IMG/VR virus record: IMGVR_UViG_3300043468_001158
Length of the DNA: 64,000 bases
Strand: one strand, 5' to 3'
Source of the DNA: a virus
Taxonomy: Duplodnaviria; Caudoviricetes
The position numbers were made by a program, and so were the translations under genes. Under the pieces are notes generated by a model, which was not told the DNA's origin, made no database searches, and saw only the letters and a program-made list of their open reading frames with translations. Positions 2,354 to 38,138 of this stretch are shown here, piece after piece (positions within the stretch are counted from its first letter, which is position 1; every line of letters starts with the position of its first letter).

Positions 2354-2418
2354 GAAAAAGATAAACTTCTGGTTTTACGATTTCTGCTAAACCTTTAGTG
2401 ATATATTAGACAGACATA

Positions 2419-2426
2419 TAAATACA
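2419..2426 (+). promoter_or_regulatory. T4-type late promoter
   Basis: Exact TATAAATA upstream of ORF 2494. Confidence 0.7.
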
Positions 2427-2493
2427 TTAGAGCATAAGCAATTTATTCCAAACCTCTTTCCACATAACGAACATACACACGGAGAATACTAAA

Positions 2494-3117
2494 ATGGCAT
2501 TCGAACTACTAAACGAATTGCAAACATTGATGCAAGAAGACAAATCAAAAAAACAACAAGAGTTCTTATTAGTAGAACGAGTTGATAAGTTGTTAGGTCA
2601 TCTACATGCGATGTTAGCAAACAAAGAAAACCCTCTTGAAGACGTAGACGTTGAAGAACTTTCTACTCAATTGGCTGGATTACAACTTCTTGGCAAGAAA
2701 GACCATCGTGATGCAATGGATGATTTCTCTAAACTTGACCAAGCAGGTGTGTCTAAAAACTTCTACAAATTTCTTGACCAAATTGATGACCCACGTCAAA
2801 CTCCAGACTTCAACGACAAACGTTCAGCTGATGACTTGTTGAAATACATTGCTACAACTCACGCACCTTCTGTGGTCAGTGATTGGAAGAATGCTATTGA
2901 AGCGGCACAAAATGGAGATGTGAAATCATTGGCAAAAATCAAAGATGCGGTCAATAAGATGTATACTTTCTATCAAGCACAATTCAACAAGTTACATTCG
3001 CACTTCAAAGTTGGCGGTTCATTTGATGACTTAGTGCCAGGTGCCGTTCCAGGTGCTTCAACTACTGGACCAGTGCCAGGAACCGTTCCTATGGACGCAA
3101 TGAAACAAGCTGCGTAA
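2494..3117 (+). CDS. Hypothetical late protein, possible internal head protein
   Basis: GGAG RBS, late promoter upstream, N-terminus MAFELLNE resembling a prohead-protease-cleaved leader. Confidence 0.75.
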   Translation: MAFELLNELQTLMQEDKSKKQQEFLLVERVDKLLGHLHAMLANKENPLEDVDVEELSTQLAGLQLLGKKDHRDAMDDFSKLDQAGVSKNFYKFLDQIDDPRQTPDFNDKRSADDLLKYIATTHAPSVVSDWKNAIEAAQNGDVKSLAKIKDAVNKMYTFYQAQFNKLHSHFKVGGSFDDLVPGAVPGASTTGPVPGTVPMDAMKQAA

Positions 3118-3133
3118 TAAACCTCTTCACTCC

Positions 3134-3173
3134 AATTTCAGAGACAGTTGACTTTTTATCTGTCTCTGAAATT
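3134..3173 (+). terminator. 14-bp perfect hairpin separating late gene from Ro60 operon promoter
   Basis: aatttcagagacag (3134-3147) / ctgtctctgaaatt (3160-3173). Confidence 0.65.
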
Positions 3174-3178
3174 ATCCG

Positions 3179-3207
3179 TTTACATATGTCACATTCTGTG
3201 ATAGAAT
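3179..3207 (+). promoter_or_regulatory. Sigma70-type promoter driving ncRNA + Ro60 operon
   Basis: TTTACA-17 bp-TAGAAT with extended -10 TG; predicted TSS about 3214. Confidence 0.75.
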
Positions 3208-3223
3208 ATAATCTCAAACTTGA

Positions 3224-3526
3224 ACAGTACGTATAAAGATGCGGTCTTCTTTCACTACCGATTAGTGATGATTATCTTAACTGACGTAGTTTCAGTTCTT
3301 GATTGAACTGACGTTTGCTGGTGGATGAGGCTAATCAGATCGTTGTTAGACCGAATGCTAACTATGAGACAGGATGAATTCTCCTGTGTAGGACGTATAG
3401 CTCTGAATAGTTATACTAGATTGTTGAAAAGAATACTCTCAAACGGGTTTCATTAGTATTTCTTCAATTGAAATCTTCGTTACTAGAATTTTGTAGTAAA
3501 AGAAGACCTATCTTTATACGTACTGT
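3224..3526 (+). ncRNA. ~300-nt structured ncRNA, candidate Y-like RNA (Ro60 ligand)
   Basis: 5' acagtacgtataaagat (3224-3240) pairs perfectly with 3510-3526; then G-U, bulged C3242, ggtcttcttt (3243-3252) pairing with 3499-3508, then 5 more bp; internal hairpins at 3260/3336, 3345-3362, 3369-3387, 3395-3416, 3424-3467; lies between the promoter and the Ro60 RBS. Confidence 0.75.
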
Positions 3527-3571
3527 GTCAAAACTTTTTGCTTTCTATTCTAAACAGGAGCCGTGATTCAT

Positions 3572-5203
3572 ATGTCAAATGCAACTAACCTCTACAAATC
3601 AGTAGTTCCAACTAAAGATTCTACTACTCCTCAAACTAAAGTAATTCCAGGTCGTGAAACCGAAATGGTTTCCAATCATGCTGGTGGTGTAGTCTTTGCA
3701 GTATCAGATATGATGTATCTTGACAGGTTCTTGATACTTGGTTCTGAACAACCAAGCTTCTATGCATCAGCTCAAAAGCTAACACAAGAAGCTGCGTCTA
3801 ATGTTATCAAGTTGATTGCTAAAGACCCAGTGTCAGTGGTCAATCGTGTGGTTGAAATCTCTAATGCTGGACGTGCTCCTAAAAACGACAGTGCTATCTT
3901 TGTATTGGCTCTTGTTGCAGTATCACCTAATAACGAAGCTCGTCAATTAGCTTTTGATGCACTTCCAAAAGTATGCAGAACTGGTACTCATTTGTTCCAA
4001 TTCGTTGACCTTATCAATTCAATGGGTAAATGGAATGCAGTGACTAAACGTGGTATTGCAAACTGGTATAACAGCAAAGATGTATCTCGTCTTGCATTTC
4101 AACTGTTGAAGTATCAACAACGTAATGGCTGGTCTCATCGTGATGTATTGCGATTGGCTCATGTAAAACCTGATAGCAACACTCGCTCTTCATTGTATCG
4201 TTGGGTAGCTGCAAAAGATAGCGAAGCAAAACGAATCGCTGCATATGAAGCTCCAAGAATTGTTGAGTTTCATTCAGCATTACATAAAGAGCCATCTAAA
4301 TCGTTGGCACTTGAATGTATCGAAGAGTTCGATATGACTTGGGAAATGTTGCCAACTGAACTTTTGAAAGATGTTGATATCTGGGCTGCTTTGATTCGTA
4401 ACATGGGTTATACTGCATTGCTTCGCAACTTGGGTCGCTTCTCTTCATTGGGAATGACTAAAGGTTTGTCTTCTACTTTGAAGGACATAGTAGCTGGTCT
4501 TAGCAATGTTGAAGCTTTGAAACGTGGAAGAGTTCATCCTATCACAATTTTGAATGCATTGAAAACTTATAGCCAAGGTCATGGTGACAAAGGCTCAATG
4601 AGCTGGGATGTTTCAACTCATGTGAAAGGTATATTGAACGATGTTTTCTATGAAGCATTCAACTTCATAGAACCAACTGGTAAAAACTTCTTCATTGGGG
4701 TTGATTGTTCTGGTTCAATGTTTGGAGCTAATGTTGTAGGATTACCAAACTTGACTGCTGCAGAAGTAGCAGGTGTGATGGCATTAGCAATCGCAAAACG
4801 TGAACCAAACTATTGGATTGGTGGCTTCAATACTAAGATGTCTGAACTGAAGATACATCCACAAATGCAATTGCCTGAAGTGCTGAAGGTCATCAGAAGC
4901 TTTTCATGGGGTGGTACAGATTGTGCATTGCCAATGATTCATGCAACTCAACATAAGATGGATGTCGATTGCTTTGTAACTATTACAGATAATGAAACTT
5001 GGGCTGGTCGTGTTCATCCAACTGAAGCACTTCGTGATTATCGTAAAGTGATGAACAAACCAAATGCTTGTAATATGGTACTTGGTACTTCAACTACTCG
5101 CTTTACTGTAGCTGACCCTAAAGACCCACGTCAATTGGACATCGTTGGATTCGATTCATCAGTACCTCAACTTGTATCGGAGTTTGCACAAGGCAACATA
5201 TGA
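3572..5203 (+). CDS. rsr: Ro60/Rsr RNA-binding protein (TROVE + vWA domains)
   Basis: Characteristic N-terminal 'NHAGGVVF...LDRFLILGSE', 'GRAPKND', 'KYQQRNGWSHRDVLRLAH', 'ALLRNLGR', vWA MIDAS 'VDCSGSM', 'GGTDCALPM', 'TDNETW'. AGGAG at 3556-3560 favours ATG 3572 over GTG 3563. Confidence 0.95.
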   Translation: MSNATNLYKSVVPTKDSTTPQTKVIPGRETEMVSNHAGGVVFAVSDMMYLDRFLILGSEQPSFYASAQKLTQEAASNVIKLIAKDPVSVVNRVVEISNAGRAPKNDSAIFVLALVAVSPNNEARQLAFDALPKVCRTGTHLFQFVDLINSMGKWNAVTKRGIANWYNSKDVSRLAFQLLKYQQRNGWSHRDVLRLAHVKPDSNTRSSLYRWVAAKDSEAKRIAAYEAPRIVEFHSALHKEPSKSLALECIEEFDMTWEMLPTELLKDVDIWAALIRNMGYTALLRNLGRFSSLGMTKGLSSTLKDIVAGLSNVEALKRGRVHPITILNALKTYSQGHGDKGSMSWDVSTHVKGILNDVFYEAFNFIEPTGKNFFIGVDCSGSMFGANVVGLPNLTAAEVAGVMALAIAKREPNYWIGGFNTKMSELKIHPQMQLPEVLKVIRSFSWGGTDCALPMIHATQHKMDVDCFVTITDNETWAGRVHPTEALRDYRKVMNKPNACNMVLGTSTTRFTVADPKDPRQLDIVGFDSSVPQLVSEFAQGNI

Positions 5204-5868
5204 AAATCGTAAGTCCGTTCAAAGACTACTATGATTATCTTGTAGGAGTATACGGCATAGATGAGTCTATTGTCTATGTTCGTAATACTCTTGCAAAAGG
5301 TTATGTTACGACTGAGAAAAAAGTATTTGACTTTCACCCATTTGCTATACCACCTGGTTATAAGACTAAGTATGTAGTAGTGAATGGGCGAAAGTATTTG
5401 TTTGTATGTCCTTCAAATTCTTATCTTGTAAAACCAAGATGGGAATTGTATGATTTCGATAAACATCATGGTCATGAGTTCATATCTCAACGATACTTTA
5501 GAAGGAAAGACCTTGAAGAACAACAAAAAGATTACATTGGTGGAACATCTCAAGCTCTAATTGACCTTTCAAAAGAAGTTGGAACTCCAGTGTTCAGTGT
5601 CACTGGATTTTCATGGATTGAGCGAAGCAAAAAGACTAATCGAAAATATGAATATGCGTTGGATAATGAAGTACCAATGCTGTCTGAACATGGCTTTCCG
5701 AATATCATCCCAGCAAATCAATTGTACCAAGAACTTGAACATTATTTGTGTAATGTATTACGGGATTCTCCTGATACAAAACCGCCAGTAACTATCAGCG
5801 ATAAAGATATGATTGAAAGCAAGGGCTTTGATAAAAAGATAAGCTTCCGTCATAGGAAGAATAAATAG
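5200..5868 (+). CDS. Hypothetical protein translationally coupled to Ro60
   Basis: ATGA start/stop overlap with Ro60 gene; 222 aa. Confidence 0.8.
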   Translation: MKIVSPFKDYYDYLVGVYGIDESIVYVRNTLAKGYVTTEKKVFDFHPFAIPPGYKTKYVVVNGRKYLFVCPSNSYLVKPRWELYDFDKHHGHEFISQRYFRRKDLEEQQKDYIGGTSQALIDLSKEVGTPVFSVTGFSWIERSKKTNRKYEYALDNEVPMLSEHGFPNIIPANQLYQELEHYLCNVLRDSPDTKPPVTISDKDMIESKGFDKKISFRHRKNK

Positions 5869-5896: not shown

Positions 5897-6433
5897 ATGA
5901 AACTCAATGTCATAGTAGCACACGATACTAATCGTGTGATAGGTAATAGTAAATCAAACTCTTTGCCTTGGTACCTTCCTCCAGACCTAAAACATTTCAA
6001 GAAACTAACATTAGGTCATCCAGTGATTATGGGTAAGAATACTTATCTATCATTACCAAATCAAAAACCATTACCAGATAGAACGAATATTGTTATTTGC
6101 AGTAATCCTGACGAATTTGAATTCCCATATAATGAATATGAAAATCAAAAGGATTCACCAGTACTAGGTTTCTCTGATTTAACCCGAGCTATTATCTTCT
6201 GCGAAACCTGGTTACAAGCTAAAGAAGCTTTTGTGATTGGTGGAGCAAGAATGTATAATGAAGTATTGAAGAAGCATCAAGTAGATGTTGTATATCGAAC
6301 CTTGATTGATGGAACTTTTGAAGGGGATGTAAAGTTTCCAGAATTGAAAGGGGAGCAATGGGTGTTGAAACCCGGAGACCCCCTTGAATATGAAGGGCTG
6401 ACTTATTACTTTGACGAGCTTGTTAGGGAATAA
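5897..6433 (+). CDS. folA: Dihydrofolate reductase
   Basis: 'IVAHDTNRVIG', 'LPWYLPPDLKHFKKLT', 'VIMGKNTY', 'PLPDRTNIV', 'FVIGGARMY', 'FEGDVKFP'. Confidence 0.95.
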   Translation: MKLNVIVAHDTNRVIGNSKSNSLPWYLPPDLKHFKKLTLGHPVIMGKNTYLSLPNQKPLPDRTNIVICSNPDEFEFPYNEYENQKDSPVLGFSDLTRAIIFCETWLQAKEAFVIGGARMYNEVLKKHQVDVVYRTLIDGTFEGDVKFPELKGEQWVLKPGDPLEYEGLTYYFDELVRE

Positions 6434-18833: not shown

Positions 18834-19496
18834 TTAAGCAACCCAAAGAGTATCAAAATCAATAGCTCGTAATTGTGCAAGAGTAGTTGAATTGTTGATA
18901 GCTTCCGCAATAGATTTCTCTTTATTGAAACAAGATTGAACATGAGTAATCACAGCAGAAGCAAGAGCACTAATTGCAGATGCATCTAATGATACCCATG
19001 AACCATCACTTGCTTTCCAATTGATAGTAATTGACGGATTGATAAGTGATGCAGTATAAGCTCCATTCAAAGTTGCTTGGGATTCTCTGTCAGTTTTGAT
19101 AGCGCTTCCATTGACATCAATACTGGCTACTTCTTTGTCATAACGATAGTTTGCTAATTGATTGAGCATTTGAACTTTACCTTCAGTTAGAATACTTGCT
19201 ACTTGTTGAGCAACAGTAGTAGTGACTCCATTTTCAGTGCTATCAGATAAAGTATCTTCGATAGGGGTGGTGACATAGGTTTGTTTCCATACTCCATTGT
19301 CAAGCGCTGGGGCTTGACGAACGGATTCTGTAAAACGTGGAGCATCATAAGGAAAAGCCGCTATTTCTAGCGGTTCAAATCCAATTGAGCTAAGGTGTGC
19401 AATATCAATGATTTGTGGAAAACAAATGTGTTCAAAGCGACGTTTGATTTCTTCGTATGATACTGGTTGTAATGTTGCGACTTCTAAAAATTGCAT
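18834..19496 (-). CDS. DUF4376-like fibre-associated protein
   Basis: 'RYDKEVASIDVNG...TDRESQATL...WKASDGSWVSL...HVQSCF' matches my recollection of DUF4376. Confidence 0.65.
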   Translation of the reverse strand: MQFLEVATLQPVSYEEIKRRFEHICFPQIIDIAHLSSIGFEPLEIAAFPYDAPRFTESVRQAPALDNGVWKQTYVTTPIEDTLSDSTENGVTTTVAQQVASILTEGKVQMLNQLANYRYDKEVASIDVNGSAIKTDRESQATLNGAYTASLINPSITINWKASDGSWVSLDASAISALASAVITHVQSCFNKEKSIAEAINNSTTLAQLRAIDFDTLWVA

Positions 19497-36635: not shown

Positions 36636-38138
36636 ATGGCCGTCATCGAAACAAAAATACCAAAACAACTGTATGTCACTCTCAGACAAGAACGACGAGT
36701 AGAACCTGATGATGCACCATTAGGCTTTGCTTCTCCATACGAACCTGGTACAAGTGGCTTCAAGAAAAGACAAAAAACCCAATTAGAATGGGCTTATCAA
36801 GTTTCACATCCTCATACAACATTTACCATTCATGACCTTCATAGAATAAATGTCTATCAAAATCAATTGTCGCTTATGTATTCACAGGATGATACGTCTG
36901 GTGAAGTCAAGATGTTTGAATGGGTTGACGATGAAACATTACCACGATTAGAAGCTAAAGATAATGATGACTGGCTAAAACAATACTTACCAAATACCTA
37001 TTGCGGCAAGTCTCGTCAAGAAGTTACTGACGACCATCCAATGGCACCTAAGATTCTTGACAATGTTCCGCTTTCTGGTTATCAATTGACTAAAGAAGTT
37101 CGTCGTACTGGTTGGAATGGTGGTAATGTTGTATGGCGAATTCTTGACCCGCGTGGATTCCAGCTTGAAATCAGTTCAGCTAATCTTGCTCGTATCATTG
37201 ATTGCTCGACTATTACTGAAGGTGTCATTATGGAACCTTGTATCTGGGGACGGTCAGGAGCTGCAAATGTATTGCTTCCAATGTCATCAGACATTTGTAA
37301 AGCTGCTTATGTGAATACTGAGCGAGCTGAAAAAAAGAAGATTCCATTGAAAGAAGTGTCAATCGGCGATCATGTTAGGATTCAAGAATCTTCAAAGAAT
37401 GAAGATATTGTGTATGAGTATCTTGGTAAATTCACGATTATCACTGGCTCAACACGTAATGAATTTTACCCATATACCACATTCAGTGGCATACATGTAG
37501 CTCGTGACAATTATGAACGGTATGTATTACGCAGGGTTGATTTTGTTGGAGGCAAAAATCAAATAGCTTATGAGTTCTATTCAACTCCAACTGTATATGA
37601 AATAGTTCAAAAGACTTTAGTTCCTAAAGATAAAGTTGAAGTATGTCAAAGACTAAATGACCTTGCATCAAGTAGATTCTTTGGGACTGATGAAACTCAT
37701 TCGCATTTATCTTATGATTCTCGTATTGTTGGATTCTGTATTGGCAAACCATCAGATTTTTCTTTATCATTAGAAAAAGTAGATGATGATGTAGATGAAT
37801 ATGCTAGAAATTGGACTATGTATGAAAGTCAATTTGAAAACTCAAAAGTCAAATCTTATTTCGTTCGTAAAGACAATCAATTATATATGATTGCTAATAA
37901 TAGAAATAATATTAGATTAGTTCCATGCAAAATAGATAAAGTTTCTATAAATTTTGAAACTAAAGTAGTAAAACATTCAAGTGGTTATTATGCTCGTAAT
38001 ATGGAAGTTCCAGTGACTTACGATTTAGATATATTGCCACCAAATGATAAAGAATGGTTTCAATTAGTTCTAAATCTAAATGGAAACAAAATACAACAAT
38101 CCTTATATCAATTCAACGACATTTCAATAAATGACTGA
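36636..38138 (+). CDS. Conserved phage hypothetical protein
   Basis: 500 aa; 'GFASPYE' and 'DPRGFQLEISSANL' motifs recognised from large phages. Confidence 0.75.
   Translation: MAVIETKIPKQLYVTLRQERRVEPDDAPLGFASPYEPGTSGFKKRQKTQLEWAYQVSHPHTTFTIHDLHRINVYQNQLSLMYSQDDTSGEVKMFEWVDDETLPRLEAKDNDDWLKQYLPNTYCGKSRQEVTDDHPMAPKILDNVPLSGYQLTKEVRRTGWNGGNVVWRILDPRGFQLEISSANLARIIDCSTITEGVIMEPCIWGRSGAANVLLPMSSDICKAAYVNTERAEKKKIPLKEVSIGDHVRIQESSKNEDIVYEYLGKFTIITGSTRNEFYPYTTFSGIHVARDNYERYVLRRVDFVGGKNQIAYEFYSTPTVYEIVQKTLVPKDKVEVCQRLNDLASSRFFGTDETHSHLSYDSRIVGFCIGKPSDFSLSLEKVDDDVDEYARNWTMYESQFENSKVKSYFVRKDNQLYMIANNRNNIRLVPCKIDKVSINFETKVVKHSSGYYARNMEVPVTYDLDILPPNDKEWFQLVLNLNGNKIQQSLYQFNDISIND

Follow-up and report, generated by a model that had tools for sequence, protein, structure and literature searches.

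A large Y-type RNA encoded upstream of Ro60 in a freshwater giant phage, and its possible circular form

The Ro60 (Rsr) gene of a freshwater giant phage is preceded by an RNA that is almost certainly a real, conserved and expressed Ro60-linked Y-type RNA. The DNA analysed, called the window throughout, is a 64-kilobase (kb) stretch of the virus record IMGVR_UViG_3300043468_001158 and is part of a 106-kb viral contig from freshwater lakes that is estimated to be 42% complete. On its plus strand, which carries every part of the element described below, the region 3224-3526 closes into a long stem, and lake metatranscriptomes contain a discrete, abundant, processed RNA of about 275 nucleotides (nt) that spans 3238-3512. 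It is probable that this element is the Y RNA partner of the phage Ro60, an enlarged version of the YrlA design that is released from a precursor and perhaps circularised in part. An earlier, sequence-only reading of this DNA had proposed a large Y-like RNA upstream of a phage Ro60 gene, on the same strand and with its own promoter-like site at 3179-3207, and in this much it was right.

The gene downstream of the element (3572-5203, plus strand) matches the Pfam families TROVE (7e-35) and vWA_Ro60 (6e-51), and its product matches the PDB entries 2NVO (D. radiodurans Rsr; 2e-111), 9NEN (a RO60 entry; 1e-100) and 1YVP (Xenopus Ro60; 3e-99). By these matches it is a true, canonical Ro60; its relation to the Ro60 of phage phiLo is distant (E = 7e-7, against 2e-111 for the Rsr of D. 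radiodurans). The start codon lies 60 nt from the 3' end of the RNA, on the same strand.

Promoter and fold of the element

The promoter-like site at 3179-3207 (plus strand), recognised by sequence match, reads TTTACA-17-TAGAAT, with TG ahead of the -10 hexamer. Of 27 related loci, 18 have a similar site, T(T/G)TACA-17-TAnAAT with at least 9 of 12 matches, ahead of their first Y-like module.

The ends of the element form a closing stem of 33 pairs over 3224-3526, with one G-U pair, one bulge and one mismatch, exactly as the sequence-only reading had described it. Seventeen perfect pairs (3224-3240 with 3510-3526) are followed by the G3241-U3509 pair, the bulged C3242, ten pairs that begin GGUC/GACC (3243-3252 with 3499-3508), the C3253/A3498 mismatch and five further pairs (3254-3258 with 3493-3497). 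The proposed structure also holds up in RNAfold, which gives 3215-3535 a free energy of -105.1 kcal/mol, against -69.4 +/- 5.0 kcal/mol for 100 dinucleotide shuffles (z = -7.1), none of which is as stable. Two details of that reading fared less well: the minimum-energy fold has about eight internal hairpins where five had been counted, and a region said to lack any open reading frame (ORF) holds one of 43 codons at 3325-3456, within the structured RNA.

The stem can be divided by what becomes of it. Its lower part (5' strand 3224-3237, paired with 3513-3526) is missing from the abundant RNA, whose contigs start at 3238/3239, and its upper part, the retained closing or basal stem (5' strand 3238-3258, paired with 3493-3512), includes the bulged C3242 and the C3253/A3498 mismatch and covaries in 27 loci. 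Above it, the 5' strand of an upper stem at 3262-3271 pairs with 3477-3486, in a position like that of an anticodon stem, and is backed by sequence, fold and family covariation. A variable region follows at 3277-3340, with lineage-specific hairpins in the predicted fold (for example, 3293-3310); its length and sequence differ strongly among loci. A further pairing, between the -10 region (3188-3223) and the ribosome-binding region (3527-3568), is possible in the window and in L026 and L106, which are closest to it, and would lengthen the stem to about 380 nt. This additional pairing is relevant just to read-through transcripts from the upstream gene.

A covarying family upstream of phage Ro60 genes

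Nucleotide searches gave little: blastn of the region against phage genomes found no match, and blastn of the element against the first 21 loci returned chance matches alone. The family was therefore traced through the Ro60 protein and by eye, using 185 loci collected by a Ro60 protein search of viral and metagenome contigs. Nucleotide likeness to the window is confined to its nearest relatives, whose Ro60 proteins are 71-72% identical to that of the window, and nearly all loci have 400-600 ORF-free bases 5' of Ro60. At least 27 distinct loci, from uncultured phages, carry an RNA of the same plan in this place, 240-330 bases in length, with a family core of 221-332 nt between anchor positions. 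Read from the 5' end, the plan consists of the closing stem, RCCG-N5-12-GRUUAYC, a variable region, CGUUG with a hairpin whose loop contains YCGAA, a short linker, a 7-pair hairpin, UGUAGG, at least one long hairpin, CYGAAAUYUCCGAY-N5-AUUUUUG and the second strand of the closing stem.

Evidence for this plan comes from pairing that is kept while the letters change. The arms of the closing stem were compared over 27 loci as two 24-nt segments, one ending just before CCG and the other beginning just after UUUG; cognate arms form duplexes with a mean energy of -24.8 kcal/mol, against -7.3 +/- 3.6 kcal/mol for non-cognate arms, and the 5' arm finds its best partner in its own 3' arm in 26 of the 27, with arms that are just 28% identical. 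RNAalifold, run on a MAFFT alignment of the full length (A2), predicts the top 15 pairs of the closing stem, and compensatory changes occur in 23 of 27 predicted pairs. Covariation in related phages, to which the sequence-only reading had looked for support, is thus present: the closing stem is 85.9% paired against 46.6% in shuffles, with a covariation of 0.93 against 0.20 that no shuffle reaches (0/500), and the signal is lost when partners are slid by 1-2 columns. Other helices behave in the same way. The innermost five pairs of the upper stem (NUUGG with CCGAN) are 96.3% paired, with a covariation of 0.50 against 0.25 when shuffled, and both the 7-pair hairpin and the helix between the GG of UAGG and the CY of CYGAA pass the pairing and covariation tests. 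G-U pairs in the covarying helices would be C-A mismatches on the opposite strand, which identifies the plus strand as the functional one. The RNA is a member of a conserved, covarying family 5' of phage Ro60 genes. Alignment A2 mis-registers the T-like arm of the window, and that part was handled with a separate model, R1, described below.

An abundant RNA with defined ends and a head-to-tail joint in its contigs

Lake metatranscriptomes were read as assembled Logan contigs, with 31-letter words and one depth figure per contig; runs X16, X17, X22 and X23 come from one study, and X18 is a tiny run from another. In these five runs the RNA of 273-275 nt (3238-3512) appears as a contig of its own, and the contig 3238/3239-3511/3512 has 17-30 times the depth of the Ro60 mRNA contig. 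The discrete transcript that the sequence-only reading called for therefore exists. In X16, the RNA contig is 305 nt long and runs 3420-3512 then 3238-3449 at depth 318, with flanking contigs 2998-3251 at 2.6 and 3529-3917 at 9.6. The contig of X17 (304 nt, depth 416) joins 3512 to 3239 and is flanked by 2400-3230 at 17 and 3531-5400 at 15; that of X22 (303 nt, depth 1177) joins 3511 to 3239, with an upstream contig that ends at 3129 (6.8) and a downstream one that begins at 3531 (67), so that the Ro60 mRNA contig is about ten times as deep as that of the upstream gene. X23 has a 305-nt contig at depth 227 with a joint from 3512 to 3238 and a flank of 3483-4100 at 7.6. In X18, a linear piece (3239-3447) has a depth of 60, and the Ro60 contigs a depth of 13.

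In all four deep runs the contig of the RNA closes on itself, the joint leading from 3511/3512 back to 3238/3239 on the same strand. Every cyclic contig has the length of the cycle plus 30 letters and is for this reason read as a closed cycle in the graph of 31-letter words. The joined ends are opposed in the stem, 3238 pairing with 3512 and 3239 with 3511, and lie 2-4 pairs below C3242; both thus fall at paired positions inside the 33-pair duplex. The two sides of the joint share no microhomology ('both' = 0). With the enrichment limited to 275 bases, a DNA artefact is unlikely, and an assembly artefact of the inverted repeat was rejected as well, since the perfect repeat of 17 base pairs is shorter than the 31-letter word and the joint keeps the same strand.

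Between the RNA and the Ro60 mRNA, a spacer (3513-3530) that holds the 3' strand of the lower stem (3513-3526) is removed: the downstream contigs start at 3529 (X16) or 3531 (X17 and X22). In X17, Illumina adapter letters stand immediately 5' of 3531, which indicates that 3531 is a defined RNA end; the simplest reading is that the processed Ro60 mRNA starts there.

Traces of the RNA were also seen elsewhere. A contig of run X20, about 94% identical to the window, covers 3261-3444 alone, that is, the interior of the RNA, at a depth of 4.4, and its sequence suggests the same RNA in a related strain. Many other lake RNA runs (more than 10) contain 8-12% of the words of the RNA. Of these, X35, with a small share of the words, was compared with the window and had no contig that matched.

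The docking site and its link to Ro60

Invariant letters top the closing stem: its 5' side carries CCG and its 3' side UUUG. The 5' docking motif of the window, CCGA ... GAUGAUUAUC, occupies 3258-3276 and follows the family consensus RCCG-N5-12-GRUUAYC, as drawn from alignment A2 and motif counts. The 3' docking side (3468-3493) consists of UUGAAAUCU, the 3' strand of the upper stem and then AAUUUUG, and corresponds to the conserved block CYGAAAUYUCCGAY-N5-AUUUUUG of A2; its G3493 pairs with C3258. The first C of CCG pairs with the G of UUUG in all 27 loci (column pair 15/518), and in A2 the positions C15, C16 and G17 as well as those of UUA-C are invariant. The conserved, Ro-site-like motif of the window is CCGA at 3258-3261, at the top of the stem. 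The sequence-only reading had instead singled out the bulged C3242 as the counterpart of the bulged C of animal Y RNAs, a proposal that does not survive comparison, as the nearest relatives bulge elsewhere.

The motif is tied to Ro60 in position and strand. In the 900 nt upstream of Ro60 it occurs 146 times on the sense strand (1.35 per kb) and once on the antisense strand (0.01 per kb), against 40 sense matches (0.12 per kb) and one antisense match (0.00 per kb) in the Ro60 gene and downstream of it. At least one sense-strand copy lies upstream in 78 of 121 loci, including loci whose Ro60 proteins are only 40% identical. Mycobacteriophage ET08, among the phages from which YrlA was first reported, has three copies of this motif in its Y RNA region (GCCGA ... 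CGGUUAYC, the 3' stem strand being preceded by ...CAUG-U). By these likenesses the docking site of the window RNA is an ordinary docking site of bacterial and phage Y RNAs, and Ro60 probably binds the RNA there. The fit to YrlA is partial: against the motif GNCGAAN0-1G, near the 5' end of YrlA, the window reads ACCGAUUAG at 3257-3265, which contains the core NCGA but lacks the initial G and the second A; in the family, the consensus is RCCG(N).

Further copies of the motif were recorded in several settings. The window has a second copy at 37068, within an ORF of 500 codons, and its presence agrees with chance expectation. Among the loci with the large RNA, 17 of 27 have a second docking motif, about 100-170 nt upstream of the large RNA (L029, L031, L037, L039, L044, L045, L048 and others) and with a 5' arm upstream, for example GGAACCG..GGUUAUC; judged by eye, about ten of these motifs are part of small Y-like RNAs, about 100-150 nt in length and ending in CUCUUUGUUCC. 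The clade of the window has the large RNA alone, having lost the small Y-like RNA or never had one. In L181, L089, L081 and L073, where Ro60 is about 40% identical, four to seven docking motifs stand in a row upstream of Ro60 and are probably arrays of small Y RNAs. In the more distant L076 and L100, the motif lies amid apparently ordinary transfer RNA (tRNA) genes (GTAGCTCAG...GGTTCGAATCC) upstream of Ro60, which here appears to sit in a tRNA cluster.

A degenerate tRNA-like core

The sequence-only reading saw no tRNA-like T-arm in the element, and here it missed a feature. Twenty relatives, with the window and its nearest kin excluded, served to build a covariance model, R1, that spans the T-like arm, the 7-pair hairpin and UGUAGG. 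Across both strands of the window it has a single, full-length match, at 3328-3395 (36.1 bits, E = 3.7e-5), and it has 30 matches over 81 loci. In the alignment of these matches, the two helices of R1 are 92.8% paired against 65.7% when shuffled, with a covariation of 0.77 against 0.23 (0/500) that falls to 0.07-0.10 when partners are slid. The T-arm-like stem has changes on both sides at all four of its pairs.

In the window, R1 places CGUUG and then a T-arm-like hairpin at 3341-3362 (stem 3345-3349/3358-3362, 8-nt loop ACCGAAUG). Throughout the family this arm is a covarying stem of 4-5 pairs with a YCGAA-containing loop, which has 8 nt and a purine at the T54 position. The model next places an acceptor-stem-like hairpin (3369-3374/3382-3387), G3388 and UAGG (3389-3392), together at 3369-3392; the window hairpin has 6 pairs and a G/G mismatch (3368-3388), and the family stem has 7 pairs, covaries and is followed by an invariant UGUAG and a nearly invariant G. 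The D-arm position is taken by an extended region (3391-3469) in which the GG of UAGG faces the UU of UUGAA, enclosing two hairpins. The family pairs at columns 387-389/483-485 are 91% paired, and in the window this closure consists of two G-U pairs alone, the element being weak here. A canonical D arm (GCUCA..GGUAGAGC) is absent from the window family, which has UAGG and then long variable hairpins closed by 2-5 pairs, with no GG-containing D loop after UAGG. ARAGORN found no tRNA or transfer-messenger RNA in the window.

In YrlA, a circularly permuted tRNA-like domain stands atop the Ro-binding stem (Chen et al. 2014, PMC4201824), and the Rfam consensus runs GUuG, T arm, acceptor-like hairpin and GUAGCUC. 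The window RNA parallels this order with CGUUG, T-like arm, closed 7-pair stem and UAGG. Given the 8-nt loop, the linker and the replacement of the D arm by long hairpins, the tRNA mimicry of the window RNA is degenerate.

Relation to known Y RNAs and other RNAs

At gathering scores, Rfam has nothing in the window or in 19 relatives, in line with the sequence-only reading, which expected no known family. At E values up to 10 (window) or 5 (17 relatives), chance matches to microRNAs and small RNAs alone appear, with no YrlA and no Y_RNA. The gathering score of YrlA (RF02553) is 69 bits, and the known YrlA of ET08 itself scores just 37 bits. Like YrlA and YrlB (PMC4201824; RF02553), the window RNA lies beside Ro60 on the same strand and has a closing stem formed by its 5' and 3' ends; like YrlA, it has a Ro-site-like motif on top of the closing stem (GNCGAA in YrlA, RCCGA(U) in the window family) with CGGUUAYC after it, followed by GUUG, a T-like arm, a closed acceptor-like hairpin and (G)UAG in this order. 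However, it has 275 nt (273-275 in the contigs), whereas characterised Y RNAs, YrlA included, have 80-130 nt (PMC4201824). Its T-like loop has 8 nt (RYCGAAYR) rather than the canonical 7, and a linker of 5-6 nt separates the T arm from the acceptor-like hairpin. In place of the D arm it has UAGG and long hairpins, several hairpins fill its variable region, and its 3' docking strand is AUUUUUG rather than CACCAUG. The element is thus not a member of YrlA as modelled, though it shares its plan and docking site. The sequence-only reading took it for a distinct class; its docking motif and element order are those of known YrlA-type RNAs and point to an enlarged, unannotated branch of the YrlA-type phage Y RNAs.

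Thermus phage phiLo also has a Ro60 with candidate Y RNAs, Yrl1 and Yrl2, directly upstream, which share a stem of 5' and 3' ends and a CGAA-type motif (PMC12135203). Assembly of the phiLo Ro60 with host PNPase has been reported, and PNPase as an effector of Y RNA and Ro60 has precedents in D. radiodurans and phiLo, which makes a PNPase effector model plausible here too (PMC12135203). The phiLo RNAs, which were defined from predictions and from binding in vitro, differ in being small; YrlA is not mentioned in that paper (PMC12135203).

With the animal Y RNAs, such as human Y1 and Y4, the window RNA shares a stem formed by the ends and a Ro60 site on a conserved helix. However, these RNAs have about 100 nt, are made by polymerase III, lack a tRNA-like body and have a bulged C within GGUC-C-GA, whereas the bulged C3242 of the window is not conserved and the Rfam Y_RNA model does not match. 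The 5' strand of human Y4, which we take to be GGUCCGAUGGUAGUGGGUUAUC, is very near CCGAUGGUAAUGAUUAUC, carried by L026 and L106. A permuted tRNA-type arrangement with a head-to-tail joint and ends held by a helix also recalls two kinds of circular RNA: permuted tRNA genes, which Soma and colleagues are said to have described in 2007 as acting through a circular RNA intermediate in the red alga Cyanidioschyzon merolae, and the circular RNAs that RtcB makes in archaea. In contrast, those systems use a splicing endonuclease at a bulge-helix-bulge and an RtcB-type ligase and yield functional tRNAs, whereas the window RNA is cut in plain duplex, RtcB is not encoded, and contigs are unbroken across the acceptor-like loop.

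A second hairpin in the 5' untranslated region of Ro60

A 'mini-handle' hairpin at 3536-3563 (plus strand), UUUUG-CUUU with a 12-nt loop and GGAGC-CG, holds the Shine-Dalgarno sequence GGAG (3557-3560) in its 3' strand. Of 27 loci, 25 have a hairpin of the form UUYG-stem-loop-stem-CCG in the stretch from the RNA to the ribosome-binding site, and its stem takes forms such as GCUGC/GCAGC, GCUGUC/GACAGC, GCUGG/CCAGC and GUCCAG/CUGGAC. Its junction is that of the docking site (C then CG; UUU then G), but the helix is closed by a loop. Free Ro60 might bind the mini-handle and repress its own translation, although we think this unlikely; at the 5' end of the processed mRNA, the hairpin could equally well serve to stabilise the message.

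Biogenesis and alternative explanations

The enzymes that the phage carries bear on how the joint might arise. A gene for a T4 Rnl1-type RNA ligase lies outside the window in the same contig (about 98967-100070; L187:1333-2436) and has an RNA_lig_T4_1 match of 85 bits and an Rnl1 C-terminal domain. Ligases of this type occur in all five related contigs of Ro60 phages, of which four are complete genomes (336-368 kb) and the fifth is a 148-kb fragment (estimated 42% complete). Neither RtcB nor RNase III was found in the phage's own contig or in the five related ones. An 'RNA_ligase' domain match at contig position 19026 belongs to an NAD-dependent DNA ligase.

In the mechanism that we propose, transcription from 3179-3207 would give a precursor with both the RNA and the Ro60 message, and a double-strand-specific cut in the long closing stem would free the RNA at about 3238-3512 and leave the Ro60 mRNA with a 5' end near 3531. 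The cut would be made by RNase III of the host, as the phage encodes none. The released RNA would retain a closing stem of about 19 pairs with the docking site on top (CCGA / AUUUUUG), the putative Ro60 site, and above it the upper stem and the degenerate, circularly permuted tRNA-like body, which by analogy with other Y RNAs may serve to tether an effector (for example, PNPase of the host) or to mimic tRNA. Once the stem is cut, the four weak pairs that come last, next to the bulged C, may fray into a 'broken loop' of 7-9 nt on the GGUC/GACC helix; the predicted circular fold has a loop of 7-9 nt on this helix. Rnl1 joins 5'-phosphate and 3'-hydroxyl ends and reseals broken anticodon loops. 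Resealing of such broken-loop-like ends by the Rnl1 of the phage would be the most economical source of the joint; part or all of the RNA would be circularised, and a closed ring would be immune to exonucleases. We advance this picture in full (a circular Y RNA made by a stem cut and Rnl1 resealing, an exonuclease-proof scaffold for Ro60 and possibly PNPase, and a mini-handle that represses Ro60 translation) as a tentative one, rather less than evenly favoured. That the RNA is circular in vivo to a meaningful extent is close to an even question, with Rnl1 a doubtful candidate for the ligase that makes the joint.

Several observations weigh against this reading. Rnl1 is frequent in large phages, so its presence lends weak support. 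RNase III leaves a 2-nt 3' overhang, whereas the joint implies ends that are blunt or shifted by 1 nt, and trimming or another nuclease must therefore be assumed. The case for binding by Ro60 is the linkage of motif and Ro60 in sequence. R1 scores a non-significant 6.1 bits on the YrlA of ET08, and the Rfam models of YrlA and Y_RNA have no match to the element at E values up to 5-10; with no covariance-model match either way, homology to YrlA is argued from the docking motif and the order of elements, and the 7-nt T-loop and D arm of YrlA are not present as such. Finally, the contigs are blind to strand, exact ends and the share of joined molecules, the four cyclic ones all come from one study, and a few template-switched complementary DNAs (cDNAs) at a depth of 200-1000 could close a de Bruijn cycle.

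The last points lead to the most serious alternative, which falls just short of an even chance: a linear Y-like RNA with ends at 3238/3239 and 3511/3512, its joint an artefact of library or assembly in which reverse transcriptase, on reaching the 5' end, jumps across the blunt stem to the 3' end beside it. Few reads per word are enough for a Logan contig, and at depths of 227-1177 about 1% of chimeras would suffice for the cycle. The three junction variants lie within 1 nt of one another, and the cyclic contigs share one library type, X18 from the other study giving a linear piece only. However, each of the four deep runs yields a closed cycle, even the two of least depth (227 and 318); the joint has no microhomology, and a nascent cDNA end cannot pair with the 3' end of the RNA. 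Judging from the library descriptions and the TruSeq adapter letters, the cDNA was random-primed with no RNA ligation step, and the phage carries an RNA ligase of a kind that seals stem-closed ends.

An improbable alternative is that the RNA acts independently of Ro60, for instance by mimicking tRNA and so acting as a decoy for anticodon nucleases or tRNA-modifying enzymes of the host, or by serving as the partner of another phage protein. The T-like arm and the 7-pair acceptor-like stem are the best conserved internal parts, inhibition of an anticodon nuclease by YrlA has been raised as a speculation in the Salmonella work (PMC7790460), and the phage carries Rnl1, a tRNA-repair ligase. However, the docking motif is tied to Ro60 in the 78 of 121 loci counted above and is common to RNAs with wholly different bodies, which points to Ro60, their common neighbour, as the binder; a decoy role is in any case compatible with Ro60 binding and is no true alternative. 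Least likely is a leader that controls Ro60 solely in cis, as an attenuator or a Ro60-bound operator with no free RNA, one of the options of the sequence-only reading: the element does lie between promoter and start codon with no terminator intervening, a conserved hairpin overlaps the Shine-Dalgarno sequence, and pairing of the -10 and ribosome-binding regions is possible in the window, L026 and L106, but such a leader conflicts with a separate, much deeper contig in five RNA runs that has sharp limits inside the stem, and with the small RNA of the same docking motif that accompanies it in 17 of 27 relatives, as a Y RNA gene would.

Genes and signals around the element

The ORFs at 2494-3117 and 5200-5868 matched no Pfam family and are not kept beside Ro60 in the 21 loci with long flanks; the latter, which overlaps the stop codon of Ro60, has as its sole match phrog_4243, of unknown function. 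A dihydrofolate reductase gene (5897-6433 in the window) follows Ro60 at about 0-2.5 kb in 9 of 21 relatives (L001-L004, L006, L012, L016, L017 and L020). A strong 14-pair hairpin at 3134-3173, 3' of the stop codon of the upstream gene (2494-3117) and with a poor U run after it, is likely a terminator. The upstream contig stops at 3129 in X22, and read-through past this hairpin reaches 3251 in X16 and 3230 in X17.

Implications

Y RNAs are obligatory partners of Ro60 from bacteria to humans, and the role of their variable bodies is still largely open. The RNA described here indicates that the YrlA design can be enlarged two- to three-fold, with the docking site kept and the tRNA-like body remodelled, and its relatives offer natural variants with which the parts that dock Ro60 can be dissected from those that would recruit effectors. 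It is one of few phage Y RNAs with evidence of natural expression and defined ends, and as the family is missing from Rfam, it goes unannotated in phage genomes. The circular form is the part that would surprise specialists. No description of a circular Y RNA was found in the literature searched, and this RNA may be the first. If it is indeed circular, phage RNA ligases, understood so far as tRNA repair enzymes, would be tied to the biogenesis of a regulatory RNA, and it would be explained how a scaffold for a 3'-to-5' exonuclease escapes that very enzyme.

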